This document shows positions 32,379-46,587 of a DNA stretch of 64,000 bases, piece by piece (positions within the stretch are counted from its first letter, which is position 1; every line of letters begins with the position of its first letter). The DNA lies in NCBI RefSeq assembly GCF_043778355.1, contig NZ_JAYWHI010000031.1:60202-124201 (forward strand), given 5' to 3'. This DNA is from Polaromonas sp. (GTDB taxonomy: Bacteria > Pseudomonadota > Gammaproteobacteria > Burkholderiales > Burkholderiaceae_C). Below the pieces are notes generated by a model, which ran no database searches, was not told where the DNA came from, and saw nothing but the letters and a program-made list of their open reading frames with translations. The position numbers and the translations under genes were made by a program.

Positions 32379-32443
32379 GAAGTCAAGCCAAATGCACCTC
32401 TAGCCCATGTCCCACATGGGTAATACGCTATTTATTTAGTAGC
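32379..32443 (-). repeat. ~65-bp dispersed repeat (TGCTAT..ATAGC family), copy 4
   Basis: Minus strand GCTACTAAATAAATAGCG..CCCATGTGGGACATGGGCTAGAGG..; overlaps the last codons and stop of the molybdoenzyme gene. Confidence 0.75.
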
Positions 32444-35400
32444 GTCCTGGCGCAGGCGAGCCACCGCAGCCGGCAGCGCGTCCCAGGCCGCACGCCCCGG
32501 CGCATACCGGCTGCGCATGTAGGCCGCCAACTCGGCGATTTGCGCATCACTGAGGCTGTGGCGAAACGCCGGCATGAACCCCACCTGTGCCGACACTGGC
32601 TCGCGGATGCCGTCCAGAATCACCCGCACCAGGTTGTCGGGCCGCGCACTGTGTAGCTTGCTGTTAAGCGCCAGCGGCACATTGGCGCCCAGCAGCGTCG
32701 GGCCTTCGCCGTCGTGGTGGCAGGAGGCGCAGGCGCCGGTAAACAGGCGCTGGCCGGGGCCCGGCAGGGCCAGGGTGGTTTGCTGCGCAGCGAGTACCGC
32801 CTGGCTGGCGCGCAAGGCACTGTAAGGTTCGGTCAGCGGCTGGTTGTACGAGGCCAGGTAGGTCGCCATGGCGCGGATGTCGGCGTCGGGCAAAGCAGCC
32901 AACTCCTTCACCACCGGCGCCATCGGTCCGGCGGCGATGCCGTGTTGTGGCGAATGGCCGGTACGCAGGTAGCTGTAGAGCTGTTCGCGGGTCCAGGGCA
33001 CCGGCGCACGCGACAGCGCGGTCAGCGCCGGCGCTTCCCAGCCATCGACCATCGCACCGCTTAAAAAGGCCTTGCCGCCACGTTCGGCGCCGACGGCATT
33101 GCGCGGCGTGTGGCAGGCGCCGCAGTGGCCCAGGCCGTTGACCAGGTAGGCGCCGCGGTTCCATTCGACGGTTTGCGTGACATCCGGCTGGTAGGGCGCG
33201 GCATCGTGAAAGAGTGCGTTCCAGCCGGCCATCAATGGCCGCACGCTGAACGGAAAGGCCAACTGTGTGGCCGGAACTTCTGAACGCACCGCTGGCTGCG
33301 CCATAAGGTAGGCATACAGCGCGGTCAGGTCCTCGTCACTGGTTTTGGCAAAGGCTGTGTAGGGAAAGGCCGGGTACAGATGGTGGCCGTCGCGCGAGAT
33401 GCCTTCGCGCATGGCGCGCTGGAAAGCACTGAAGGACCAGAGGCCGATACCGGTCTGGGCATCGGGGGTGATGTTGGTGGTCACTACCTTGCCGAAGGGC
33501 GTGTCCATGGCCAGACCACCCGTATTGGGCACACCGCCGGGGGCGGTGTGGCAAACCACGCAATCACCCGCAGCGGCGAGCTGGCGGCCGCGCTCGATGG
33601 TGGCAGCGGTGTAGATGGCCCCGCTGCTGGCGGCCACCGGCGCGATGGCCGGACGCCAGCCCAGCAGCGCGGTCGCGATGCCAAACACGCTGGCGAGGAC
33701 GGCGCCACCGCGCACCCAGGCTTTGCGCTTGCGTGGCCAGACTGCCGTTGTGGGTAGTGGGTTGTCGATGGGTTCAGGCGTCGACTGCAGACGCGCTGTC
33801 TCGCCGTCCGGCGCCGGGTTCAGCGCCGCGCGAATCACTTCGGGCGTGAACGGCGGCTGGCGGAAACGCACACCGGTTGCATCAAAAATCGCATTCGCAA
33901 TCGCTGCCGTGCCAGGCACCGAGGCCGACTCGCCAGCGCCCAAAGGCGGCTCGCCCGGCCGCGCCATGGTCACCACCTCGATCACAGGCACATCGCGGAA
34001 ATTGAGGATAGGGTAAGCGCCCCATTCAAGCGCAGCGACCGTGTTGTTCACCGGATTCAACGCCACCTGCTCGGTCAGCGCACGGCTGGTGGTTTGCACC
34101 ACGTTGCCGTGGATCTGATGCTGCACACCGGCCGGGTTGATCAGCGTGCCGGCGTCGTGACCGACCACGACGCGCCGCACATGGACTTCGCCAGTTTTAC
34201 GATTGACTTCCACGTCGGCGACCCAGGCGGCCCAGGCGGCGCCAAAACCCGGCCACTTGCTGTGCACATAACGCGCGTAGGCCACGCCCTGGCCTGTCAC
34301 GATGTCCGATGCGCCCTCCCCAGCCGCGTCACGATCCGGCGTCTGTTGCGGCTGGGTGTGTGCCTTCCAGCCGGCGCGCTCGGCGGTCGCGCGCACCAGC
34401 TCGGCGGCACGCGGCTCGCTGAGGTAACGCAGGCGGAACTCAACCGGATCGACACCGGCGGCGGTCGCGAGTTCGTCGATGTAGGACTCGTGCGCGAAGG
34501 AATTGGGCAGGGCCGAGACACCGCGCAGCCAGGACGCGCGCAGCATGGGCGCCATGTCGTTGACGCTGACACGCAGGTTGTCGTAATCGTAGGGCGGCCG
34601 CGCGCTGCGGTCACCCATCTCGTAGGCCTGCGCGACCGGTTCGATGGTGCGGGTCAGCAGCAACGCCAGCGTTGGCGAACCGTTGGAGGGGTAGGAGGTC
34701 TGGAAGTCATAGGCGGCGACCGAACCGTCGGCATTGAGGCCGCCGCGCACCTGCATCAGTTGCGCCGCGCCCTTGGGCTCCCAGGCGTGCTCCTGCTCGC
34801 GCGTGAGCTGCACCCGCACCGGCGCACCAACGGCGCGCGACAGCAGGGCGGCGTCAGCGGCCACGTCGTCGGCGCAATTGCGGCCATAACAACCCGCCGC
34901 TTCCATGCGGACGACGTCGATGGCTACGTCGGCCAGGCCCATCAGGCGCGACAGATCGGCGCGCAGCACATGCGGGTTTTGCGTGCCGGCCCAGACCGTG
35001 AGGTGAGGTCCCGCCGCCGGGCCGTTCCCAAGGCGGGATGCGGCCCCCTCGGGGGGCAGCGACCCACCCTCGGTGGGGGAGTGTGGGGGCACAGGCCGCC
35101 GCGAAGGGCCGCCCCGAGCAAGGCCAGCCCCCTCGGGGGGCAGCGACTCACACGCAGTGGGGGAGCGTGGGGGCCCTTCTTGCCAGTCGGCCAGCGCACA
35201 GGACGGGCCGATGGAGCCATGCATCTGGTAGGGCCAGACATAGTTGCGCGCCAAGGCCTGCGCGGCGCCGGCAATCGCCGCGTCCACATCGCCTTCATCA
35301 ACCAGCCTTCGCTGGGTGGACGGGTTGCTCTTGATCGCCTGTTCGAGGTCGTCGAGCTTCTGCAAACCCGGCCAGGCTTTCCAGGCCACCTTGAGGTCGC

Positions 35401-36247
35401 GCAGGGCCTGCTCGGCAAATTCCTCGCGTTCGGCAACGATGCCGACAAAATCGCGGATCACCACCACCGCGCGGATACCAGGAATATGCGCGATCGACGA
35501 TTCATCGACCGCCTGCAAGGTGTTGCCGATGAAGTCGCCATGGTCCGCGCCGGCATAAGGCGGTCGCACCACACGGCCATGCAGCATGCCGGGCACCCGC
35601 ATGTCATGCACAAAAGTCAGCGCACCGGTGGCCTTGGCGGGAATGTCGACACGCAGCTGGGCGGTGCCGACGATGCGATAGTCTTCGGGCGCCTTGAGTA
35701 AGGTGTCCGGAGCCAATGTCAACTCGACATGCTGGCCGCTGAGCAGCGCGCCATAGGCCAGCGACCGGCCAGCGTTATCGCTGATCACGCCTTCGCGTAC
35801 ACCCAGGGTGGTGAGGTCAGCCGCCAACTCTGCGGCGGCACGGGCCAGCAGCCAGGCACGCGCCTGCGCTGCGGCGGCGCGCAGCGGCGCCGAATGAATC
35901 TGTATCGAGGTGCTGGCTATCGTGGCGCCCTGGTTCGGCACACTGGCCGTGTCGCCCAGCACCATGTGGACTTGATGGAGCGCCACGTCGAGTTCTTCCG
36001 CCACGATCTGGCTAAGGGCCGTGCGTATGCCGGTGCCCAGATCGACATGGCCGTTCAGGGCCGTCACCCTACCGTCATCCCAGACCGCGAGCAGAATCTC
36101 CACGCCTTCGCGCGGGTTGGCGGTAACCAGCGGCGGTTGCCCAGGCGCCGCCGGCGGGGCTGGTGGTGGCGCACGCGTGACCAGCAGCACGCCGGACGCC
36201 GCGTGAAACCCGGCGCGTGTCAGCGACGTAACGGCACGGCGCGTCAT
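32432..36247 (-). CDS. Molybdopterin (MCD) oxidoreductase large subunit fused to tri-haem cytochrome c; NicB-like nicotinate dehydrogenase
   Basis: HVDLGTG, GCYG, SWLRG, LGAGES motifs; three CxxCH (CVVCH, CGACH, CASCH); carries a ~55-aa repeat-derived insertion. Confidence 0.85.
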   Translation of the reverse strand: MTRRAVTSLTRAGFHAASGVLLVTRAPPPAPPAAPGQPPLVTANPREGVEILLAVWDDGRVTALNGHVDLGTGIRTALSQIVAEELDVALHQVHMVLGDTASVPNQGATIASTSIQIHSAPLRAAAAQARAWLLARAAAELAADLTTLGVREGVISDNAGRSLAYGALLSGQHVELTLAPDTLLKAPEDYRIVGTAQLRVDIPAKATGALTFVHDMRVPGMLHGRVVRPPYAGADHGDFIGNTLQAVDESSIAHIPGIRAVVVIRDFVGIVAEREEFAEQALRDLKVAWKAWPGLQKLDDLEQAIKSNPSTQRRLVDEGDVDAAIAGAAQALARNYVWPYQMHGSIGPSCALADWQEGPPRSPTACESLPPEGAGLARGGPSRRPVPPHSPTEGGSLPPEGAASRLGNGPAAGPHLTVWAGTQNPHVLRADLSRLMGLADVAIDVVRMEAAGCYGRNCADDVAADAALLSRAVGAPVRVQLTREQEHAWEPKGAAQLMQVRGGLNADGSVAAYDFQTSYPSNGSPTLALLLTRTIEPVAQAYEMGDRSARPPYDYDNLRVSVNDMAPMLRASWLRGVSALPNSFAHESYIDELATAAGVDPVEFRLRYLSEPRAAELVRATAERAGWKAHTQPQQTPDRDAAGEGASDIVTGQGVAYARYVHSKWPGFGAAWAAWVADVEVNRKTGEVHVRRVVVGHDAGTLINPAGVQHQIHGNVVQTTSRALTEQVALNPVNNTVAALEWGAYPILNFRDVPVIEVVTMARPGEPPLGAGESASVPGTAAIANAIFDATGVRFRQPPFTPEVIRAALNPAPDGETARLQSTPEPIDNPLPTTAVWPRKRKAWVRGGAVLASVFGIATALLGWRPAIAPVAASSGAIYTAATIERGRQLAAAGDCVVCHTAPGGVPNTGGLAMDTPFGKVVTTNITPDAQTGIGLWSFSAFQRAMREGISRDGHHLYPAFPYTAFAKTSDEDLTALYAYLMAQPAVRSEVPATQLAFPFSVRPLMAGWNALFHDAAPYQPDVTQTVEWNRGAYLVNGLGHCGACHTPRNAVGAERGGKAFLSGAMVDGWEAPALTALSRAPVPWTREQLYSYLRTGHSPQHGIAAGPMAPVVKELAALPDADIRAMATYLASYNQPLTEPYSALRASQAVLAAQQTTLALPGPGQRLFTGACASCHHDGEGPTLLGANVPLALNSKLHSARPDNLVRVILDGIREPVSAQVGFMPAFRHSLSDAQIAELAAYMRSRYAPGRAAWDALPAAVARLRQDATK
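35019..35173 (+). repeat. Tandem CCCCCTCGGGGGGCAGCG..GTGGGGG repeats inserted in-frame in the CDS
   Basis: Units at about 35019-35089 and 35106-35173 encode two PPxSP...SLPPEGA peptides on the minus strand. Confidence 0.85.
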
Positions 36248-36735
36248 GCGTCAGCGCCGCCTGCGCTGCGCATCAATTCGGCGGCGCGCCGGACCGCCTT
36301 GAGGATTTCCAGATGGGTGCCGCAGCGGCAGAGGTTGCCGGACAGCTCGCGCCGTATTTCTTCATCCGTTGGATCAGGATTTCGCGCCAGCAGCGCTGCC
36401 GTCATCACCATCATGCCGCTCATGCAGTAGCCACATTGCGCCGCCTGTTCGTCGATGAAAGCCTGCTGCACCGGATGCAGGCGGTCCGCCCCACCCAGCC
36501 CTTCGAGCGTGGTGATGACCCGGCCGCCAGCGTGGACCGCCGGGATCACGCAGGACCTCGCCGCCACACCATCGACCAGCACGGTGCAGGCCCCGCATTC
36601 ACCGAGGCCGCAGCCGTACTTGGGGCTGTTCAGGCACAGGTCGTTGCGCAGCACGGTCAGCAGGCTGGTCTGTTGTGACACAGTCATGTCCCGCAACACG
36701 CCGTTGACGCTGAGAAGGACAGGCTGCAAGGTCAT
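36244..36735 (-). CDS. [2Fe-2S] subunit of the molybdoenzyme (NicA/CoxS-like)
   Basis: KYGCGLGECGACTV and QCGYC..GNLCRCG cysteine motifs; overlaps the large subunit start. Confidence 0.92.
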   Translation of the reverse strand: MTLQPVLLSVNGVLRDMTVSQQTSLLTVLRNDLCLNSPKYGCGLGECGACTVLVDGVAARSCVIPAVHAGGRVITTLEGLGGADRLHPVQQAFIDEQAAQCGYCMSGMMVMTAALLARNPDPTDEEIRRELSGNLCRCGTHLEILKAVRRAAELMRSAGGADA

Positions 36736-36777: not shown

Positions 36778-37508
36778 CTAGACGCTGAGATAGGCACGCC
36801 TGACCTCTTCATTGGCCGACAGGTCGGCCATGGTCCCCTCATAACGGATCTGGCCTTTTTCGAGCACATAGGCCCGGTCCGACACCAGCTCCGCAAAATG
36901 CATGTTCTGTTCGGACAGCAGGATGCTGACGCCCTGCGACTTGAGCTCCAGAATCATCAGTGCCATTTGTTCGACGATGACCGGCGCCACACCTTCGGAG
37001 GGTTCATCGAGCAGCACCAGGTAGGGGTTGCCCATCAGCGTGCGGGCCACCGTCAGCATCTGCTGCTCGCCGCCACTCATGCGACCACCCGGCCGGTCGG
37101 GCATTTCACCGAGATTGGGAAACAGCTTGAACAGTCGCTCGGGCGTCCACACCGGGGCGGCAGCACCGTCCGGCCAGTGCCGCGGGGGCTGCTTGCCGAC
37201 TTCGAGGTTCTCGAGCACCGTGAGGTCGGTGAACACACGTCTGTCCTCAGGCACAAAACCCAGGCCCAGCCGGGCCGCCACATGCGACTCGCTTCTGGAA
37301 ATGTCCTGCCCCAGAAAGCTCACCGCGCCCTTGCGCTTGGCCAGCATGCCGATCAAGGTTTTGAGTGTGGTGGATTTTCCAGCGCCGTTGCGGCCCATCA
37401 GGGCCACCACCTCGCCGCGCCGCACCTGCAGGTCCACATCGTAAAGAATCTGTGCGGCGCCGTACCAGGCACACAGGGCTTTGGCGTCGAGCAAAACAGC
37501 TGTGCTCA

Positions 37509-37509
<1 letters not shown>
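36778..37509 (-). CDS. Liv-type ABC ATPase (LivF-like)
   Basis: GRNGAGKS, MSGGEQQML, LDEPSEG. Confidence 0.92.
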
Positions 37510-38293
<784 letters not shown>

Positions 38294-38297
<4 letters not shown>

Positions 38298-40210
38298 GCT
38301 TTCACCTCGCCAGTGGTTGTGGGGGAGACCTTGTTGCGAAGCCGATCAAACATCAGCTTGGCCGAACCGGCAATGCCTTGCGGGAACAGCAGCACCAGCA
38401 GCAGGATGATGGCGCCGAGCATGGCGCGCCAGTAATCGGTGTTGCGTGCCACGGTGTCATGCAGCCAGGTGAAGGTCACCGCGCCCACCACCGGGCCAGC
38501 CAGGGTCTGGATGCCGCCGAGCAGCACCATGACCAGACCGTCCACCGATTTACCCACACTCAGGCTCTCGGGCGAAATGCTGCCTTTGGAAAACGCGTAA
38601 AGGGATCCAGCCAGACCGGCAGCCGCGCCGGCGATCACAAAAGCCGTCCATTGCATGCGTTTGACATCAATCCCGATCGCGTCGGCGCGCAGCACCGAAT
38701 CGCGTCCGGCACGCAGGGCATAACCGAAGGGCGAAAACAACACGCGGCGAAGCCACAACACGGCGCCGGCCACCAGCACCAGCGTGAGCCAGTAATACAT
38801 GCGTTTGTCAGACAGCCATTCTGACGGCCAGACGCCGGTGAGGCCGTTGCTGCCGCCGGTGAAAGAATCCCACTGGTAGGTGATGGCCCAGGTGATCTGC
38901 GCAAACGCCAGCGTCAGCATCGCGAGATACACGCCCGACAGCCGCACCGCGAACCAGCCATAAACAAACGCGCCCACGGCCGCCACCAGCGGCGCAACAA
39001 CAAGCGCGAGTTCCATCGGCATGCCGCTACTGCGCACCAGCAAAGCCGCTGCGTAGGCACCGAGTCCGAAGTAGGCCGCATGGCCGAAGGAGTGCATGCC
39101 AGCCGGGCCCATGATGAAGTGCAGACTGGCGGCAAACAGCGCAGCGATCAGCAGGTCGATCATCAATACTGTGGTGTAAGGCGAATTGACCGTGAACAAG
39201 GGCATCGCGGCCAGCACCAGACCCAGCACGGCGGCCGCCATGACATAGGTGCGGCTGCTCTTGCGCAGCGGTTCTTCCTGCATGCCCACATAGCGGCTGG
39301 GCGCCTGCGGCCGGCCGAACAGGCCCCAGGGTCGCCACACCAGCACAATGGCCATGACCAGGAAGTCAGCCACCAGCGTGAGTTTTGAAAAGGAGATGCT
39401 GTAGCCGAAGATATCGACCACACCGAGCCAGATACAAATCGCCTTGATTTCGGAGATCAGCAGCGCGGCCGCGTAAGCGCCGGGGATCGATCCCATGCCG
39501 CCTACCACCACCACCACAAAGGCCGAGCCTATGGTGTGCAGGTCCATCTCCAGCGTGGCCGGTTCACGTGGCAGTTGCAGCGCACCGCCCAGACCGGCCA
39601 GCATGGCGCCCAAGGCAAATACGGCAGTGAACAGCCAGGCTTGATTCACACCCAGCGCACTGACCATCTCGCGGTCCTGCGTGGCAGCACGCACCAGCGT
39701 GCCCCAGCGCGTGCGGGTCAGCAGCAACCACAGCAGGCCCAGAACCATCGGGCCCACCACAATCAGGAACAGGTCGTAGCTTGGAAACTGCCGGCCCAGG
39801 ATTTCGACCGCACCCGACAGGCCGGGCGCGCGCGGGCCGAGCAATTCGTCAGGGCCCCACAGATAAAGAACCAGATCCTTGATCACCAGCACCAACGCAA
39901 AGGTGGCCAGCAACTGGAACAGTTCCGGCGCCTTGTAGATGCGGCGCAGCAACACCATTTCAATCAGCGCGCCAATGATGCCGGTCGCCACGGCGGCCAA
40001 CAGCAAAGCGGGCCAGAAGCCCAGGCCGCCGCCCAGCTTCTCGACCAGCGTGTAGGCGATGTAGATGCCGACCATGAAAAACGAGCCGTGGGCAAAGTTG
40101 ACGATACGTGTGACGCCGAAAATCAGCGACAGGCCCGCAGCCACGAGAAACAGCGACGATGCGCCGGCCAGCCCGTTGAGCAACTGAACGATGAAACCGG
40201 AAAAACTCAT
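38294..40210 (-). CDS. Fused LivH/LivM-type ABC permease
   Basis: NFAHGSF in the N-half and SFGHAAYFG in the C-half; 638 aa. Confidence 0.9.
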
Positions 40211-40283
40211 TCAATGATCCTCAGGAGCCCGGCACAACACACCACGCCGCGATGCGGCGCAGTGCCTTGTTGGGCAGGTTTGC

Positions 40284-41489
40284 TCAGTCTGTGGCGCGCG
40301 ACTTCTTGACGTCGGCTGCAGGCGGCTGGAACTTGGCGCCGTCGAAATAGGTGTAGTCCACCATGACGCCCTTGCCGTTGTCGTTTTTGGTCTTGCCGAC
40401 AAACGCGCCCATGGTCGACTGGTGGTCTTCCGGACGGTAGGTGATCTTGCCGAAGGGGGTCGATACCTGCAGGCCCTTGAAGGCGGCCACCATCTTGGCC
40501 GATTCCGTGCTTTTGGCCTTGGCGGCTCCGGCGGCCACAGAATGGATCATGGCGTAACCGACCACCGAACCCAGACGCGGATAGTCCTTGTACTTGGCAT
40601 GGTAGGCGAGGAAAAAGGCCTTGTGCTCGGGCGTCTGGACGCCGTACCAGGGATAACCGGTGACGATCCAGCCGTTGGGCGTTTCTTCCTTGAGCGGGTC
40701 CAGGTATTCGGGTTCACCGGTCAACACACTGACCACGGTGCGGTCCTTGAACAGGCCACGCGTGTTGCCTTCACGCACAAACCTCAACAGGTCGGCGCCA
40801 AACAACACGTTGAAGATCGCATCGGGCTTGGCGTCGGACAGCGCCTGCACCACGCTACCGGCATCGACCCGGCCCAGCGGTGTGGCCTGCTCGGCCACAA
40901 ACTCGACATCGGGTTGCGCCGCCTTCAGCAACTGCTTGAAGGCCGCGACCGCCGACTGGCCATATTCGTAATTGGGGTACACGATGGCCCAGCGCTTTTT
41001 CTTGAGCTTGGCCGCCTCGGGGACCAACATTGCGGCCTGCATGTAGGTGCCGGGACGCAGACGGAAGGTGTACTGGTTGCCGCCCTGCCAGGTCATCTTG
41101 TCGGTCAGCGGCTCACCAGCAAGAAAGAAAAATTTCTTCTGTTTGGCAAAATCGGCCACAGCCAGGCCGGTATTGGACAGGAACGTACCGGTCAGCACAT
41201 CGATTTTTTCGCGCGAGATCAGCTCTTCGGCCACGCGCACCGCATCGCCCGGATTGGCATTGTCGTCACGCGTGATCAGCTCGATCTTCTTGCCGTTGAC
41301 GCCACCGGCCGCATTGATTTCTTCAACCGCCAGTTCCATGCCCTTTTTGTAGGGCTCGAGGAAGGCGGGCTGCGCCTTGTAGCTGTTGACCTCGCCGATT
41401 TTGATCACGCCCTGCGCTTGCGCTGTCACCAGCGAAGCCAGCAGACCCAGATAGGTCATGGTGCCCAGCACTCTGTATTGCATTTTCAT
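40284..41489 (-). CDS. Liv-type ABC substrate-binding protein (probable nicotinate/pyridine uptake)
   Basis: Signal peptide, GMELAVEEINAAGG, RDDNANP; located in the nicotinate cluster. Confidence 0.85.
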   Translation of the reverse strand: MKMQYRVLGTMTYLGLLASLVTAQAQGVIKIGEVNSYKAQPAFLEPYKKGMELAVEEINAAGGVNGKKIELITRDDNANPGDAVRVAEELISREKIDVLTGTFLSNTGLAVADFAKQKKFFFLAGEPLTDKMTWQGGNQYTFRLRPGTYMQAAMLVPEAAKLKKKRWAIVYPNYEYGQSAVAAFKQLLKAAQPDVEFVAEQATPLGRVDAGSVVQALSDAKPDAIFNVLFGADLLRFVREGNTRGLFKDRTVVSVLTGEPEYLDPLKEETPNGWIVTGYPWYGVQTPEHKAFFLAYHAKYKDYPRLGSVVGYAMIHSVAAGAAKAKSTESAKMVAAFKGLQVSTPFGKITYRPEDHQSTMGAFVGKTKNDNGKGVMVDYTYFDGAKFQPPAADVKKSRATD

Positions 41490-41533: not shown

Positions 41534-42118
41534 TTAGCGGAGCCCGTCTTCGCCCCTGATTTCGTGGATCTGCAGTCCGCCCACGCGCGGTAGAGGTCGG
41601 CCACTGTCTGTCACAACGACAGCGACCACAATTTCGTTGGCACGCGGCGCATCGGCGACACGGGCCTCCATCGCGTCGAAATGGCTGCGCACAAAAGCCG
41701 CGTCCTTATGCCCCAGGGGCACATCAATCGCGGTGCCCAGTCCACCGCGTTTTTTACTTGAAGGCACCAGGGCCGCGCCTTTTTCCACGGCAAGGCGCAG
41801 CGGCGCGCCCAGCTTGGGATGCAGGATGGCCGCGGCATGTTCGAGCTCGCCGGCCTCGCCAACGATCGCCGCCTTGCCATAACTCTGCGCCCGGCCCGGT
41901 GGGATGCCCAGCGCCTGCACGCATTTTTGCCCGAGCAAGGCACCCAGTTCCTCGCCGATGCTGACCAGTTCGTCCAGGTTTTCCTGGTAAACGCCGGCCA
42001 AGGGGTTCGCGATGACCGCCATGGCCAGCGCCCTGCGCGTCGGCGGGCTCACGGGTTGACCCATTTCCAGATGGATCTCGTCGACCTGAACAATGATTTT
42101 CCGGATGTTGGCTGTCAT
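41534..42118 (-). CDS. DUF1185 (amino acid synthesis family) protein 2
   Basis: ANPLAG, SYGKAAIVGEAGELEHAAA, VPSSKKRG, AFVRSHFD; start trimmed to ATG 42118. Confidence 0.8.
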   Translation of the reverse strand: MTANIRKIIVQVDEIHLEMGQPVSPPTRRALAMAVIANPLAGVYQENLDELVSIGEELGALLGQKCVQALGIPPGRAQSYGKAAIVGEAGELEHAAAILHPKLGAPLRLAVEKGAALVPSSKKRGGLGTAIDVPLGHKDAAFVRSHFDAMEARVADAPRANEIVVAVVVTDSGRPLPRVGGLQIHEIRGEDGLR

Positions 42119-42155
42119 GGATGGTCCTTGTGTTTGTTGCGATGGCGGCGGCGCT

Positions 42156-42797
42156 TCAGCGCAATCCGTCCCATTTGCTGATGGCGGCTGCGGCGAGGCC
42201 GCCGACACGCGCATGAATGCGCGGGCCCGTGCTCATCGCCAGGATAAAAACAATTTCATCGGCCAGCGGTGCGCCGGGAACCCGCACCTCGATCGCGTCA
42301 AAATGGCTGCGCACATAGGCGGCATTGATGTGGGTCATGGGCACGTCGAGTGCCGCGCCGGGTCCGCCCACCTTTTTGGTCGAGGGCACGATGGACAGGG
42401 CATTGCCCGCGCGTCCGGACTTTTCTTCGCCCTTGCCTTTGGCATAGGCCGCCGCATCCCCCTTCCAGCCCAGCAGTTCGCGCATGGCATAACCGCCAGG
42501 CACATGCCAGAGCGCGCCGTGTTCGAGCTCGCCGGCCGCACCGATGATGGCGCCCTTGCCATACCCCTCGATGCGCTCCGTGGGAACATCCATGGCCGCA
42601 AGCAGCTTGCGCGCCATCGTGAGCCCGACCGGGTCCAGCGCCGCCATCATCGGGAGGATCTCGGGCTCGAAGCGCCCGGCAAAGGGATTGGTAAGCACCA
42701 CACCGATGGCGCCACGTAGCAGCGGCACGGGCGCGACGGGCCCGAATTCATGCCGGATCTGCTCCACATGCGTGAAGATGCGTCGTATTTCAATCAT
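42156..42797 (-). CDS. DUF1185 (amino acid synthesis family) protein 1
   Basis: TNPFAG, GYGKGAIIGAAGELEHGA, VPSTKKVG, AYVRSHFD; start trimmed to ATG 42797. Confidence 0.8.
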   Translation of the reverse strand: MIEIRRIFTHVEQIRHEFGPVAPVPLLRGAIGVVLTNPFAGRFEPEILPMMAALDPVGLTMARKLLAAMDVPTERIEGYGKGAIIGAAGELEHGALWHVPGGYAMRELLGWKGDAAAYAKGKGEEKSGRAGNALSIVPSTKKVGGPGAALDVPMTHINAAYVRSHFDAIEVRVPGAPLADEIVFILAMSTGPRIHARVGGLAAAAISKWDGLR

Positions 42798-42819: not shown

Positions 42820-43728
42820 TTAAGCAAATACCGAACCAGCTTGCTGATTGGCGCGGTGGTTTTCGAGCGTTCCCATGGCCGCAGTATCGGTGCTGGCGAT
42901 CTGATTCTGACAAATCAGCGCCGCCGACCAGATCAGGCGGGCGCCGCGCAGGGCCTGCGCACGTTTCAGACCGGCCCGCAAAGCCTGTTGTACCAGCGCC
43001 GGCTCCAGCGGCGGGACATCCACCGTGACCGCCAGATCTCCCAAGTCGGCGTTGTCTTTGAGCGCACACGCCGGACGGCGCTGAATCCGCGGATCGGTCA
43101 GGTTGACGGCATTGGCAATGACGGTGGCGGCCGCATCGGCCTCGGACGCCGTGCGCGCCAGCACCGTGACGCTGTCGGCGATGCCCAGTGAAAAGCTCCT
43201 GCCGCGCCAGCCGCTGGTGGCGACACCGCGTACCGGCAGCAGGCTGGATATGTCGAACTGCGCGTCCGTACGGATACCGCGTTGCAACTCGTCCAGGTTC
43301 AGACGCGCCAGATCCGCATACAGACCGATATGCACCGATTCGGATGGCGCCAGGTGCAAGGCAATATCGCCGCCGTTGTTGACCCAGGCCCGTGCCACGC
43401 CGCTGATCGAATAACAGGTAATCAGTTCCTGTGCAACGGCGCCGGCCACCGCCGCCATCGGCGTGATGAAACTGCTTTTGTAAGGCTGGCAGGCATGCCA
43501 CATCCGCCGTGCAATCGGGCCCTGCAACGGGCAGTTGCCCTGCACCGGAAGCCGTAACAGGGGGAGTTCTTCCACCAGTTCCCCCAGAATGCCGCGAAAA
43601 CGCAGCCATGCATCCTCGTGGGCACTGTCCACAGAATCGGGATCGCCGTTGGCACCGATCACGATATCTATGGGACCATGCTGCAGATGCCAGCGACCAT
43701 CGGGCAAACGGGTACGTTGAGCGTCCAT
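42820..43728 (-). CDS. UPF0280 family protein (ApbE-like superfamily)
   Basis: LQHGPIDIVI, ITPMAAVAGAVA, NNGGDIA, GVATSGWRGRSFSLGIADSVTV; start trimmed to ATG 43728. Confidence 0.8.
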   Translation of the reverse strand: MDAQRTRLPDGRWHLQHGPIDIVIGANGDPDSVDSAHEDAWLRFRGILGELVEELPLLRLPVQGNCPLQGPIARRMWHACQPYKSSFITPMAAVAGAVAQELITCYSISGVARAWVNNGGDIALHLAPSESVHIGLYADLARLNLDELQRGIRTDAQFDISSLLPVRGVATSGWRGRSFSLGIADSVTVLARTASEADAAATVIANAVNLTDPRIQRRPACALKDNADLGDLAVTVDVPPLEPALVQQALRAGLKRAQALRGARLIWSAALICQNQIASTDTAAMGTLENHRANQQAGSVFA

Positions 43729-43745
43729 ATCGGGGTCGGCCCCAC

Positions 43746-45359
43746 TCAACCAAGCAGGGGAGGACGCGCTAGTGGCCAGGGATTGGCGGCCGGCAAGGCA
43801 GTCCATTGCAGTGACGATGGCGCACCCTCGTTGTGCCAGGCACCGCGCGAGAGCGCTTCTTCCAGCGAGCGCACATGGTCCATGTGCCCGCCCAGAGCGC
43901 GGTAGTCTTCCAGCTTCATGCTGAACTCGATCGGCGCCACAATGGCCGGCGTGGGCACGGTGCCAAAACTGTTGTCGGGCATACGCATGACATCTACCAT
44001 CACCGTGATGCCGCCGCCCGGCCAGACATAGGCCGGCGCACCGCCGCAAGTGACATTGACCAGAGCGCTCTTGATGGCCCGCGTCAGCAGTACCGGGTTT
44101 TCGGTGACCCCGGCGCGCAAGCTGCCGCCGGCGCCGCCAAGGAATAACACCGTGGACAGGGAAGGCTCGCAGTTTTCGCCAATACGCTCGACCACCAGGC
44201 GCACCTCGGCCGGCATGTCCTGCTCGACGGGCACCAGGTCTTCATTGAGCACATACCAGCTCGCATGTTCCCCGGTGGTGGAGGTCATGAGCAGGCGCAA
44301 ACCCGGCCAGGCGGTATCGGGGTCCCAACTCTCGATGATGGACAGCGGTTCTGCGATGTCGGTGCCGCCCCAGCCGGTTCCTGGATTGGCCACCTGAAAA
44401 TAGCGGCCTGGCGTTGATTTGCGTCCGCGCATCTTGATGCCTGAGGAGCGCATGTCCAGGCACCGGCCCGCCTGGTGTTCGGTCAGCACACCCGTGATGT
44501 GGTCATCCACGACCACCACCTCGTCGAGCTTGCCGAACAGTTGTTTTGCAAAAATACCAATGGTCGCCGAGCCACAACCGACACGCATGCGCCGCTCTTC
44601 GACACCGTTGACAATCGGGGCGCGGCCGGCCTGAATCACGATCTGCGAGCCGCCGTCAATGGTGAACTCCACCGCCTTCTTGTTGCCCAGCAACTGCATC
44701 ATGTCCATGGTGACTCGGCCCTCTTTCTTGCTGCCACCGGTCAGGTGGTGCACGCCACCGAGCGAAAGCATCTGCGAGCCGTATTCCGCCGTCGTCACGT
44801 GGCCAACCACCTCGCCCTTGCAGCGCACATTGGCCTGCTCGGCGCCAAGAAAACGGTCGGTATCAATCTTCACCTTGAGGCTGCAGTAGCTGAAGATGCC
44901 TTCGGTGACGACCGTGACCATGTCCACACCGTCCACCTCGGAGGACACGATGAACGGCGCTGGCTTGTAATCGGGGTAAGTGGTCGAGGAACCGACGCCG
45001 GTGACAAAGACCTCGTCGGCCAGCAGCAGATCGCCGCTCCAGGACACCGGCGGAACCTGTCCGGTCGAATCGTCAGCCCCCTGCCGGCCGGCAAACGCGA
45101 GCACCTTTGCTTCACCCTGTGCCAGCGTGCGGCGCAGCAGCAGAACAGGATCCACACGAACCAGGGTGCCGCCACGATTCGCATACCGATCACATGCGCC
45201 GGTGCGGCCATCGGAAATCTGGCACAACACGGGGCAGGCATTGCACTCGATTTTCTCGCTGTTCATGCGGTCGTTACGCGGTCGGGCTTTTTCCAGCACC
45301 TGGCCAAAGGCCGGCGTATCCATGCCTGGCAAGCCGTCCGTTTTGGTGTGTTCCGTCAT
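43746..45359 (-). CDS. 6-hydroxynicotinate reductase-like Fe-S flavoprotein
   Basis: N-terminal CNACPVLC..GACDRY, TEGIFSYC, RVGCGSATIG, GAGGSLRAG; context with enamidase and NicAB; start trimmed to ATG 45359. Confidence 0.8.
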   Translation of the reverse strand: MTEHTKTDGLPGMDTPAFGQVLEKARPRNDRMNSEKIECNACPVLCQISDGRTGACDRYANRGGTLVRVDPVLLLRRTLAQGEAKVLAFAGRQGADDSTGQVPPVSWSGDLLLADEVFVTGVGSSTTYPDYKPAPFIVSSEVDGVDMVTVVTEGIFSYCSLKVKIDTDRFLGAEQANVRCKGEVVGHVTTAEYGSQMLSLGGVHHLTGGSKKEGRVTMDMMQLLGNKKAVEFTIDGGSQIVIQAGRAPIVNGVEERRMRVGCGSATIGIFAKQLFGKLDEVVVVDDHITGVLTEHQAGRCLDMRSSGIKMRGRKSTPGRYFQVANPGTGWGGTDIAEPLSIIESWDPDTAWPGLRLLMTSTTGEHASWYVLNEDLVPVEQDMPAEVRLVVERIGENCEPSLSTVLFLGGAGGSLRAGVTENPVLLTRAIKSALVNVTCGGAPAYVWPGGGITVMVDVMRMPDNSFGTVPTPAIVAPIEFSMKLEDYRALGGHMDHVRSLEEALSRGAWHNEGAPSSLQWTALPAANPWPLARPPLLG

Positions 45360-45813: not shown

Positions 45814-46587
45814 ATGAGCGCTTTCAACGAAGAAACAGTTTTGTCCGTCCACCACTGGACCGACAAGCTGTTCACGTTCACCACCACCCGCGATACCTCC
45901 CTGCGCTTCAGCAATGGTCACTTCACCATGATCGGCCTGCGCGTCAACGACAAACCCCTGCTGCGCGCCTACAGCATCGTGAGCCCGAACCACGAGGAGC
46001 ATCTGGAATTTCTCAGCATCAAGGTCGCTGACGGTCCCCTGACCTCACGCCTGCAGCACATGAAGGTCGGCGACAAGATCATCGTTGGGCGCAAGCCAAC
46101 CGGCACACTGGTGATCGACTATCTGCTGCCGGGCAAACGCCTGTACCTGCTGTCGACCGGCACCGGCCTGGCGCCTTTCATGAGCATCATCCGCGACCCC
46201 GAGACCTACGAGCGTTTCGAGCAGGTGGTGCTGGTGCACGGTGTGCGTCAGGCCGACGAGCTGGCCTACCACGACCTGGTGGTCGAGCACCTGCCCCAGC
46301 ATGAATTTCTCGGCGACCTGATCTCCAAACAATTGCTGTATTACCCCACCGTCACGCGCGAAAGCTACCGCAACATGGGCCGTGTCACCGACCTGATGGA
46401 AACCGGCAAGATGTTTGCCGACCTGAATCTGCCGGCGCTGGACCCGGCCACCGACCGCGTGATGATCTGCGGCAGCCCGGGCATGCTCAAGGATTTGAAA
46501 CACATGCTGGAGCAAAAAGGCTTCCATGAGGGCAACACCTCCAAGCCAGGTGATTTTGTGATCGAACGGGCCTTCGCAGAGCAGTAA
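45814..46587 (+). CDS. fpr: Ferredoxin-NADP+ reductase (bacterial subclass I)
   Basis: RAYSIVS, GPLTSRL, LSTGTGLAPF, MICGSPGML, C-terminal ERAF. Confidence 0.93.
   Translation: MSAFNEETVLSVHHWTDKLFTFTTTRDTSLRFSNGHFTMIGLRVNDKPLLRAYSIVSPNHEEHLEFLSIKVADGPLTSRLQHMKVGDKIIVGRKPTGTLVIDYLLPGKRLYLLSTGTGLAPFMSIIRDPETYERFEQVVLVHGVRQADELAYHDLVVEHLPQHEFLGDLISKQLLYYPTVTRESYRNMGRVTDLMETGKMFADLNLPALDPATDRVMICGSPGMLKDLKHMLEQKGFHEGNTSKPGDFVIERAFAEQ

Follow-up and report, generated by a model that had tools for sequence, protein, structure and literature searches.

A UPF0280 protein with an ApbE-like fold is very probably a dedicated accessory protein of 6-hydroxynicotinate reductase in Polaromonas

In the reductive nicotinate pathway, 6-hydroxynicotinate reductase (Hnr) is the key enzyme that reduces the ring, and the literature searched on this pathway describes the neighbours of hnr only as conserved proteins whose function is unknown. 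The E. barkeri enzyme is reported to carry covalent flavin (Alhapel et al. 2006); no statement supporting this was found in the other literature searched. The closest described relatives of the protein encoded behind hnr here are MA1715, DvMF_0044 and the protein of PDB entry 2o34, members of COG2122 that are genetically tied to a DUF39 homocysteine enzyme. COG2122 is required alongside DUF39, with a cofitness r of 0.98, and low sulfide makes MA1715 necessary; these proteins are currently described as sulfur-trafficking, the authors' view being that COG2122 homology stops short of the region where ApbE binds flavin. The original prediction spoke of an uncharacterised family, a description that has to be withdrawn, as genetic work has shown that homocysteine synthesis requires COG2122 members along with DUF39. 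The residue roles of ApbE and FmnB, including the catalytic triad Ser241-His257-Asp285 (V. cholerae numbering), have been described (PMC12052999), and in ApbE clients it is the last Ser/Thr of the motif D-x-x-[ST]-G-A-[ST] that gets modified.

We analysed a window of 64,000 nucleotides of Polaromonas sp. DNA (the whole stretch studied, whose positions are used throughout), in which hnr and the UPF0280 gene of the Hnr-associated type, hereafter H-type, lie on the minus strand with the following features:

43746..45359, minus strand: hnr, 6-hydroxynicotinate reductase homologue, 537 aa
45192..45245, minus strand: Hnr Cys39-x2-Cys42-x3-Cys46...Cys56, presumed Fe-S site
43729..43745, minus strand: spacer from hnr stop to UPF0280 start, 17 bp
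42820..43728, minus strand: UPF0280 / COG2122 gene, Hnr-associated type, 302 aa
43366..43377, minus strand: UPF0280 N118-G-G-D121, counterpart of the ApbE 'N-x-G-G-D-I' loop by hhalign
43198..43221, minus strand: UPF0280 A170-T-S172-G...G176-R177
43123..43140, minus strand: UPF0280 A197-D198-A-A-A-T202, counterpart of ApbE 'A-D-A-L-S-T'
41534..42797, minus strand: two AA_synth (PF06684) genes of the same operon, after UPF0280

The coordinates bear out the earlier claim that UPF0280 starts 17 bp behind the hnr stop, with the TGA at 43748-43746 and the ATG at 43728-43726 of the minus strand. The same Met begins the close homologues of 302-303 aa in the H-type alignment. The spacer contains a weak purine-rich stretch, GAGTGGGG, and no terminator-like site was found on the minus strand between the two genes; UPF0280 would share its transcript with hnr and probably be translated along with it. 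The surrounding nicotinate cluster comprises a NicAB-like dehydrogenase, an ABC transporter, the two AA_synth genes and an enamidase-like amidohydrolase.

The 537-aa protein is probably Hnr (EC 1.3.7.1), judging from the names of its relatives, with proteins 80-95% identical to it being named 6-hydroxynicotinate reductase by NCBI, and from the nicotinate-cluster context. It shares about 40% identity with Eubacteriaceae homologues (Acetobacterium bakii, Eubacterium aggregans), and for a Bradyrhizobiaceae homologue the identity to E. barkeri Hnr is 42% (PMC3511419). Sequence searches against Pfam, NCBIfam and PDB returned no match. Bacillota and Desulfobacterota homologues carry an N-terminal 2x[4Fe-4S] ferredoxin domain, whereas Hnr here is without it. 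The Cys39/42/46/56 motif is invariant in alignments of 16, 46 and 81 sequences, and across the 81 sequences six Cys are invariant in total. The Hnr model has a pLDDT of 80, exceeding 90 in the core (residues 130-500). With it, Foldseek found neither solved-structure relatives nor a flavin domain at E <= 1e-3, a wide VIA fold search gave a best Z of 4.0 (for a model of more than 400 residues, in which single domains may be missed), and the ESM Atlas search matched Hnr clusters only. An Hnr without a recognisable flavin-binding fold would fit a cofactor that is retained chiefly through a covalent bond.

The UPF0280 protein scores 395.3 bits against the NCBIfam equivalog model NF003322 (cut-off 290), its residues 2-295 covering profile positions 3-291 of 295, and 68-80 bits against NF003321/3/4. 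NF003322 scores are bimodal across the homologues, with H-type proteins at or above 188 bits and a second, D-type group at or below 89 bits. JGI labels the homologues 'ApbE superfamily uncharacterized protein (UPF0280 family)', their precomputed Pfam family is PF27030, and the name 'UPF0280' was not found in the literature searched. Our Pfam scan of the protein itself at E <= 0.01 gave no match, PF02424 (ApbE) included, and relatives linked to Hnr score no more than 20-25 bits with PF02424, at profile positions of about 125-205. No signal peptide is evident and the protein is therefore taken as cytoplasmic.

Next, we investigated the linkage of UPF0280 to hnr across genomes. Among 401 Pseudomonadota genomes, Hnr occurs in 21, and H-type UPF0280 is present in the same 21 of 21, always directly downstream of hnr on the same strand, and in none of the 380 Hnr-negative genomes. 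A sample of 301 genomes from a Bacillota phylum gives the same picture, with H-type UPF0280 in 14/14 Hnr-positive and 0/287 Hnr-negative genomes and with matching copy numbers of the two genes, including two pairs each in genomes G550 and G571. When informative loci from four lineages were considered (n = 77; Desulfobacterota-like, Bacillota, Nitrospinota and Alphaproteobacteria), UPF0280 was found at most 400 bp downstream of hnr in 69. Four genomes show no adjacent copy at their hnr locus, and each carries one NF003322-type gene (two without a copy in the 10-kb flank, one with an incomplete flank, one with the copy 8 kb away). Across 80 hnr loci, UPF0280 is present in 75, the two AA_synth genes, which are also strongly linked, in 66, and the enamidase in 44. 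Three apparent Hnr-UPF0280 fusions (P0248, P0331, P0362) were considered as Rosetta-stone evidence and all three were discounted, because P0248 is a frameshift-riddled chimera. Canonical ApbE (PF02424) is absent from this genome and from 6 of 20 other Hnr genomes. The pairing of Hnr and UPF0280 is far beyond chance. The tie to Hnr in the original prediction, which had been drawn from gene spacing, is supported by operon position and by presence/absence across phyla, and the genome has no canonical ApbE that might stand in.

We also examined the fold and the putative active site. The UPF0280 model (pLDDT 90.6) has the full two-lobed ApbE T-fold-like architecture by VIA over residues 9-301, with Z of 13.7-15.9 against the ApbE/Ftp/FmnB structures 1vrm, 4xdr, 4xgv, 6nxi, 7esa and 5mgy over about 210 aligned residues; hhalign relates it to ApbE at a probability of 96% (E 3.6e-9). 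For the sister protein 2o34, VIA gives Z 20.1 over 215 aligned residues (rmsd 3.5 A, 21% identity), Foldseek an E of 3e-11 and the H-type alignment profile an E of 2e-19. By spacing, Ser172 corresponds to Ser241 of V. cholerae ApbE and Ser257 of FmnB, Arg177 (Ser172 +5) to Arg262 of FmnB, and Asp198 to Asp285/Asp301 of the ApbE/FmnB triad; the spacings Ser to Arg of +5 and Ser to Asp of about 44, after the gap, agree with the numbering of PMC12052999. In the H-type alignment, the NNGGD, ATSG, R177 and ADAAAT elements show little or no variation, and the triad equivalents Ser172 and Asp198 are invariant. The Thr of ApbE 'A-D-A-L-S-T', equivalent to Thr202, has a metal-binding role. The ApbE catalytic (general-base) His is absent, the 17-residue 'HHILDPxTG' loop, which would follow the Arg177 segment, being deleted from UPF0280 in the hhalign alignment. 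A loose regular expression for the ApbE target motif matched 0 of 81 Hnr sequences, and the Hnr 'GCGSAT' ('GSAT') segment was rejected as an ApbE-type target on account of its non-conserved Thr. The proposal of an ApbE-like enzyme is upheld for the fold and the retained motifs, but not for the His loop or for a target motif in Hnr.

Upon closer examination of the sister paralogues, DVU1097 (2o34), DvMF_0044 and MA1715 share with the UPF0280 protein here the motifs TPMAAVAG, NGGD, TS[GS], G[RH]S and ADAAAT. Genomes that contain both DUF39 and Hnr hold two paralogues, with the D-type beside DUF39 in 2 of 4 and the H-type beside Hnr, while E. aggregans, in which DUF39 is absent, has the H-type only. 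No match to DUF39 (PF01837) was found in this genome, which is 94.6% complete, nor in four further Pseudomonadota genomes that carry Hnr. Hnr was also considered as a distant DUF39 homologue and this was rejected: hhalign gave a probability of 0.3% for 81 Hnr against 5 DUF39 sequences, the DUF39 profile being shallow, and PF01837 does not match Hnr in genomes having both. The occurrence of one paralogue per client reductase argues for protein-directed maturation over general sulfide handling.

From these observations, UPF0280 is very probably a cytoplasmic accessory protein dedicated to Hnr. As to how it would act, delivery or covalent fixing of flavin on apo-Hnr is the most likely mechanism, which we put forward tentatively; its ligand, chemistry and target residue are what we infer. 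Each COG2122 paralogue would serve one ferredoxin-dependent reductase, the D-type DUF39/L-ASST and the H-type Hnr. The retained ApbE-like site (NNGGD, Ser172, Arg177, Asp198, Thr202) may take up Mg2+ together with a dinucleotide, for example FAD, after which UPF0280 would deliver a flavin moiety to apo-Hnr or fix it there covalently. The recognition site on Hnr would differ from canonical ApbE targets, and no ApbE catalytic His would be used. Besides the missing His loop, the missing target motif and the published view of the ApbE homology, two points count against flavin attachment by UPF0280, namely that 8-alpha or 6-S flavin linkages are usually self-catalysed, and that the sole experimental data on the COG2122 family concern sulfide assimilation and homocysteine synthesis.

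Among the alternatives, it is rather unlikely that UPF0280 is a stoichiometric partner or chaperone of Hnr without transfer chemistry, either as a structural or regulatory subunit or as an SdhE-like helper that keeps Hnr ready to receive its cofactor, in each case via its T-fold surface. Such a role is consistent with the strict co-inheritance and matching copy numbers, with the loss of the catalytic His, and with an insertion of about 45 residues in the H-type that could be a docking element; however, the invariance of the small polar residues D121, S172, R177, D198 and T202 suggests ligand chemistry rather than an interface alone, and E. barkeri Hnr was reportedly purified as a single polypeptide. 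Improbable, in our assessment, is a sulfur or Fe-S maturation factor with MA1715-like traffic of sulfide or persulfide for building or repairing the unusual Hnr Fe-S site (Cys39/42/46/56, possibly with Cys262/Cys397). The genetics of COG2122 with DUF39, the need for MA1715 at low sulfide with its sulfur-trafficking label, and the six invariant Cys of Hnr point in this direction, but neither the H-type alignment nor the six D-type sequences aligned contain an invariant Cys, leaving no obvious persulfide carrier. Furthermore, the Hnr reaction involves no sulfur, the general Fe-S machineries are normally enough, and the conserved UPF0280 residues are those of the ApbE metal/diphosphate site.

Still less probable is an independent pathway enzyme whose substrate would be a small molecule from the nicotinate route, such as a tautomer of tetrahydro-6-oxonicotinate. 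T-fold proteins bind planar N-heterocycles, the T-fold relatives urate oxidase and GTP cyclohydrolase IB are found at Z of 6-8 to the UPF0280 model, and the gene belongs to a catabolic operon that encodes two further proteins of unassigned role. Against this, the sister paralogues have DUF39 as their partner, an enzyme with an unrelated substrate, the linkage is specific to hnr and tighter than that to the enamidase (75 against 44 of the 80 loci), and no missing step is known between Hnr and the enamidase. Finally, chance adjacency or mere synteny, for which only the general caveat speaks that related genomes share gene order, has a negligible probability, as presence and absence agree in 702/702 genomes of two phyla and the arrangement is kept across four lineages despite the rearranged rest of the cluster.

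Returning to a dedicated accessory protein, an ApbE-fold protein as an obligatory partner would probably explain any lack of activity of heterologous Hnr, and the paralogue-per-client view of COG2122 bears on DUF39/L-ASST and MMP16 enzymology in methanogens. If flavin transfer is confirmed, the reach of post-translational flavinylation would come to include another enzyme class, a new motif and the cytoplasm of aerobes without ApbE. A broader and more doubtful generalisation is that COG2122/UPF0280 constitutes a second, His-less cytoplasmic class of ApbE-like cofactor transferases, both of whose clients, Hnr and the DUF39 homocysteine/CoM-type enzymes, would be ferredoxin-dependent reductases needing, as a one-electron/two-electron switch, a covalent flavin or a related group derived from a dinucleotide. 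On this view, MA1715 would owe its 'sulfur trafficking' phenotype indirectly to a DUF39 enzyme left immature.

Small dedicated proteins that a single client enzyme requires for the covalent attachment of its flavin are known as SdhE/SdhAF2-type factors, to which UPF0280 is presumably alike in concept only, with an unrelated fold and no sequence relationship. Compared with the ApbE/Ftp/FmnB FAD:protein FMN transferases (PF02424), UPF0280 has about 10-16% identity, about 100 fewer aligned residues and no lipoprotein signal; the ApbE/Ftp/FmnB class includes the signal-less, cytoplasmic ApbE of Klebsiella pneumoniae. UPF0280 adjoins its presumed client gene, as apbE often does (PMC12052999). The nearest likeness is to the D-type (COG2122/DUF375), whose partner is DUF39 (COG1900, L-ASST) whereas that of the H-type is Hnr. 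The H-type is longer by its insertion, which follows ADAAAT, and at the position of its Arg177 the D-type mostly carries His. Both types are cytoplasmic, each with a single ferredoxin-dependent reductase as its partner.

The UPF0280 gene of the window, which encodes a 302-aa COG2122 protein, lies directly behind hnr, the gene of a 537-aa 6-hydroxynicotinate reductase homologue (Hnr). The DNA is high-GC and Polaromonas-like Comamonadaceae, with nearest homologues carrying the name Polaromonas, and the gene cluster agrees with that described for Azorhizobium and Bradyrhizobiaceae:

32432-36247, minus strand: NicB-like molybdoenzyme with cytochrome c domains
36244-36735, minus strand: [2Fe-2S] subunit of the NicB-like molybdoenzyme
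36778-41489, minus strand: ABC transporter, Liv/Urt-type
41534-42214 and 42156-42797, minus strand: AA_synth/PF06684 gene pair
42820-43728, minus strand: UPF0280 gene
43746-45359, minus strand: hnr
Divergent to the hnr operon: Fpr-like reductase (45814-46587), TetR regulator and an amidohydrolase in the enamidase position

As originally predicted, exactly 17 bases separate the hnr stop codon from the UPF0280 ATG, and on its coding strand this gap contains nothing that resembles a terminator. Membership of UPF0280 is firm (NF003322, 395 bits; cut-off 290), and both genes are single-copy in the window's genome.

Across three independent samples, the pairing of hnr with UPF0280 exceeds chance; genomes within a lineage are not independent, and the counts are descriptive, not statistical. 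Among 401 Pseudomonadota genomes drawn evenly over the phylum, Hnr is present in 21 (11 genera) and a strong UPF0280 match in exactly those 21, always immediately 3' of hnr on the same strand, with just two marginal matches (E ~1e-3) in the 380 Hnr-less genomes. In 301 genomes from the phylum to which Acetobacterium bakii belongs, the distribution of NF003322 scores is bimodal, with a lower group (at most 89 bits) in about 100 genomes and 16 full-length matches of at least 188 bits spread over 14 genomes, the same 14 that carry Hnr. Copy numbers of the two genes agree, and two Bacillota genomes hold two pairs each, G550 (contigs C20, C53) and G571 (C47, C88), the duplication retaining the pairing. 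On contigs G571:C88 and G533:C36 the partner lies ~3.2 kb downstream of hnr, not adjoining it.

The third sample comprised 80 loci with Hnr, found in Desulfobacterota-like MAGs, Bacillota, one Nitrospinota MAG and Alphaproteobacteria, 77 of them with sufficient downstream DNA. UPF0280 follows on the same strand within 400 bp in 69 of the 77; it lies within 1 kb in three others, at 1.5 and 8 kb in two, and outside the flank in three. Four of the five genomes with exceptional loci that were searched contain one NF003322-type gene each (loci L036 and L039, with none in the flank; L054, with the flank cut short; L062, with the copy 8 kb off), and the genome of L013, also with none in the flank, holds the other paralogue type only. 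In the L039 genome (Acidisphaera sp. L21) AA_synth directly follows hnr, and the sole NF003322-type gene (L110, G411:C119:21624-22460), on a separate contig, has an internal TAG, perhaps through decay into a pseudogene or faulty assembly. UPF0280 is the commonest companion gene of hnr (75/80 loci), followed by AA_synth (66/80) and enamidase (44/80). One or two AA_synth (PF06684) genes come after UPF0280 in 66 of the 80 loci (window 41534-42797; loci L003-L082), making Hnr, UPF0280 and AA_synth a recurring triad in which the role of AA_synth is likewise not known. Of three apparent Hnr-UPF0280 fusions in a metagenome protein library, P0248 proved to be a frameshift-riddled chimera, with identity patches alternating with out-of-frame sequence, and P0331 and P0362 were set aside alongside it as evidence of fusion.

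Next, we examined the protein itself. Its AlphaFold model (27-sequence alignment; pLDDT 90.6, pTM 0.90) matches the solved structure 2o34 (DVU1097), a member of the COG2122/DUF39-linked group, at Z 20.1, and every solved ApbE, Ftp or FmnB (FAD:protein FMN transferases) at Z 13.7-15.9 over residues 9-301, with urate oxidase and other T-fold proteins following at Z 6-8. Profile-profile comparison with three canonical ApbE proteins gave a probability of 96% (E 3.6e-9). The motifs kept invariant or nearly so in four lineages are:

T89-P-M-A-A-V-A-G96
N118-G-G-D121
A170-T-S172-G173
G176-R177-S178
A197-D198-A-A-A-T202

Counting from the TSG Ser in aligned ApbE, position +5 is Arg, +16 is His and about +44 is Asp; FmnB Ser257/Arg262/His273/Asp301 and V. 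cholerae Ser241/His257/Asp285, which are catalytic or FAD-binding residues (PMC12052999), are spaced alike. UPF0280 retains the Ser, Arg and Asp of these, but differs from ApbE by a 17-residue gap that removes 'HHILDPxTG', the loop bearing the general-base His. Since the N-terminus has neither a hydrophobic signal nor a lipobox, the protein should be cytoplasmic.

The core of the Hnr model is confident (residues 130-500 mostly pLDDT >90). For this long multi-domain model, Foldseek found no solved relative at E <= 1e-3, the best Z against 48,161 representative chains (VIA wide) was 4.0, and neither search recognised a flavin-binding fold. Bacillota and Desulfobacterota homologues carry an N-terminal 2x[4Fe-4S] ferredoxin domain, whereas the window's Hnr has in its place a poorly conserved insert (residues 76-117, pLDDT <50; alignments A1, A4), so that electrons would have to reach it from another protein, perhaps one connected with the divergently placed fpr-like gene (45814-46587). 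In two database proteins, P0251 and P0257 (~970-980 aa), a GltD-like NAD(P)H/FAD/[4Fe-4S] module (Fer4_20 + Pyr_redox_2) is fused to the Hnr catalytic core; they may represent a reductase that depends on pyridine nucleotides, and the fusion shows that the core accepts electrons from Fe-S centres. Cys39-x2-Cys42-x3-Cys46...Cys56 is common to all Hnr homologues, and the other invariant residues include Cys262, Cys397, His287, His295, Tyr193, Ser195, Ser315, Ser413, Thr167, Thr362 and Arg415, any of which could attach or bind flavin. The ApbE target motif, even in loose form, occurs in 0 of 81 Hnr sequences, and the Thr of the 'GCGSAT' segment is not conserved. A search with PF02424, the model of canonical ApbE, found nothing in the window's genome or in G304, and of 20 additional Hnr-bearing genomes 6 likewise gave no match, four of which are 100% complete. 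Because the window's genome yields no match, flavinylation of Hnr by a canonical ApbE appears to be ruled out there.

The original prediction took UPF0280 for an uncharacterised family, which is inaccurate, as UPF0280 is COG2122/DUF375 and has published genetics in how homocysteine is synthesised. Desulfovibrio vulgaris Miyazaki F requires the COG2122 gene, DUF39 and a NIL/ferredoxin protein jointly for homocysteine synthesis, with a cofitness between COG2122 and DUF39 of r = 0.98, and MA1715 of Methanosarcina acetivorans is needed when sulfide is low (PMC5764234); a 2025 paper terms MA1715 a sulfur-trafficking protein (PMC12068725). Four genomes with both DUF39 and Hnr (G404-G407) hold two COG2122 paralogues each: a D-type (~250 aa; NF003323, 254-292 bits), adjoining DUF39 in two of the four, and an H-type (~290 aa; NF003322, 175-221 bits), adjoining Hnr and differing from the D-type by ~45 extra residues after ADAAAT. 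Eubacterium aggregans has the H-type only, without DUF39, and DUF39 was found neither in the window's genome nor in four further Hnr-bearing Pseudomonadota genomes tested. This pattern and the absence of DUF39 argue that COG2122 comprises client-specific paralogues, of which the window's copy would serve Hnr. Homology between Hnr and DUF39 is not detectable (hhalign probability 0.3%); what they share is ferredoxin-dependent two-electron reduction and a 2x[4Fe-4S] domain or partner. Another COG2122 paralogue, the third and a divergent one (L113:5107-5865, minus strand; contig G405:C19), with 115 bits to NF003323 and a degenerate ADAAAT motif, heads a same-strand string (neighbours L113:2444-5095) of calcineurin-like phosphoesterase, HIT protein, coiled-coil protein and RibF (FAD synthetase/riboflavin kinase), a single observation that possibly hints at a nucleotide or flavin connection.

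Overall, UPF0280 is very probably a dedicated helper of Hnr, with support as good as comparative genomics allows. As to how it would help, delivery or attachment of flavin to Hnr is tentatively the single most likely mechanism, because the residues conserved in UPF0280 correspond to the metal/diphosphate pocket of ApbE, because E. barkeri Hnr reportedly holds covalent flavin, and because the window's genome has no other ApbE-superfamily protein. Three alternatives stay alive, since the His loop is gone, the target motif is absent and the sister-group genetics are sulfur-related. A non-catalytic partner or chaperone, a role favoured by the lost loop and opposed by the retained pocket, is unlikely. 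Somewhat less probable still is an Fe-S or sulfur maturation factor: the homocysteine genetics point that way, and the lack of an invariant cysteine, both in the H-type alignment and among six aligned D-type sequences, speaks against a persulfide relay. A small-molecule enzyme of the nicotinate pathway, whose genes surround UPF0280, is improbable.

Our literature search found no paper linking UPF0280 to Hnr; the COG2122-DUF39 link and the resemblance to ApbE are already published, so that a role in Hnr maturation would not be the family's first function, as had been claimed, and the UPF0280-Hnr pair is a variant of an already known accessory family in which the client has switched, rather than a new kind of system.
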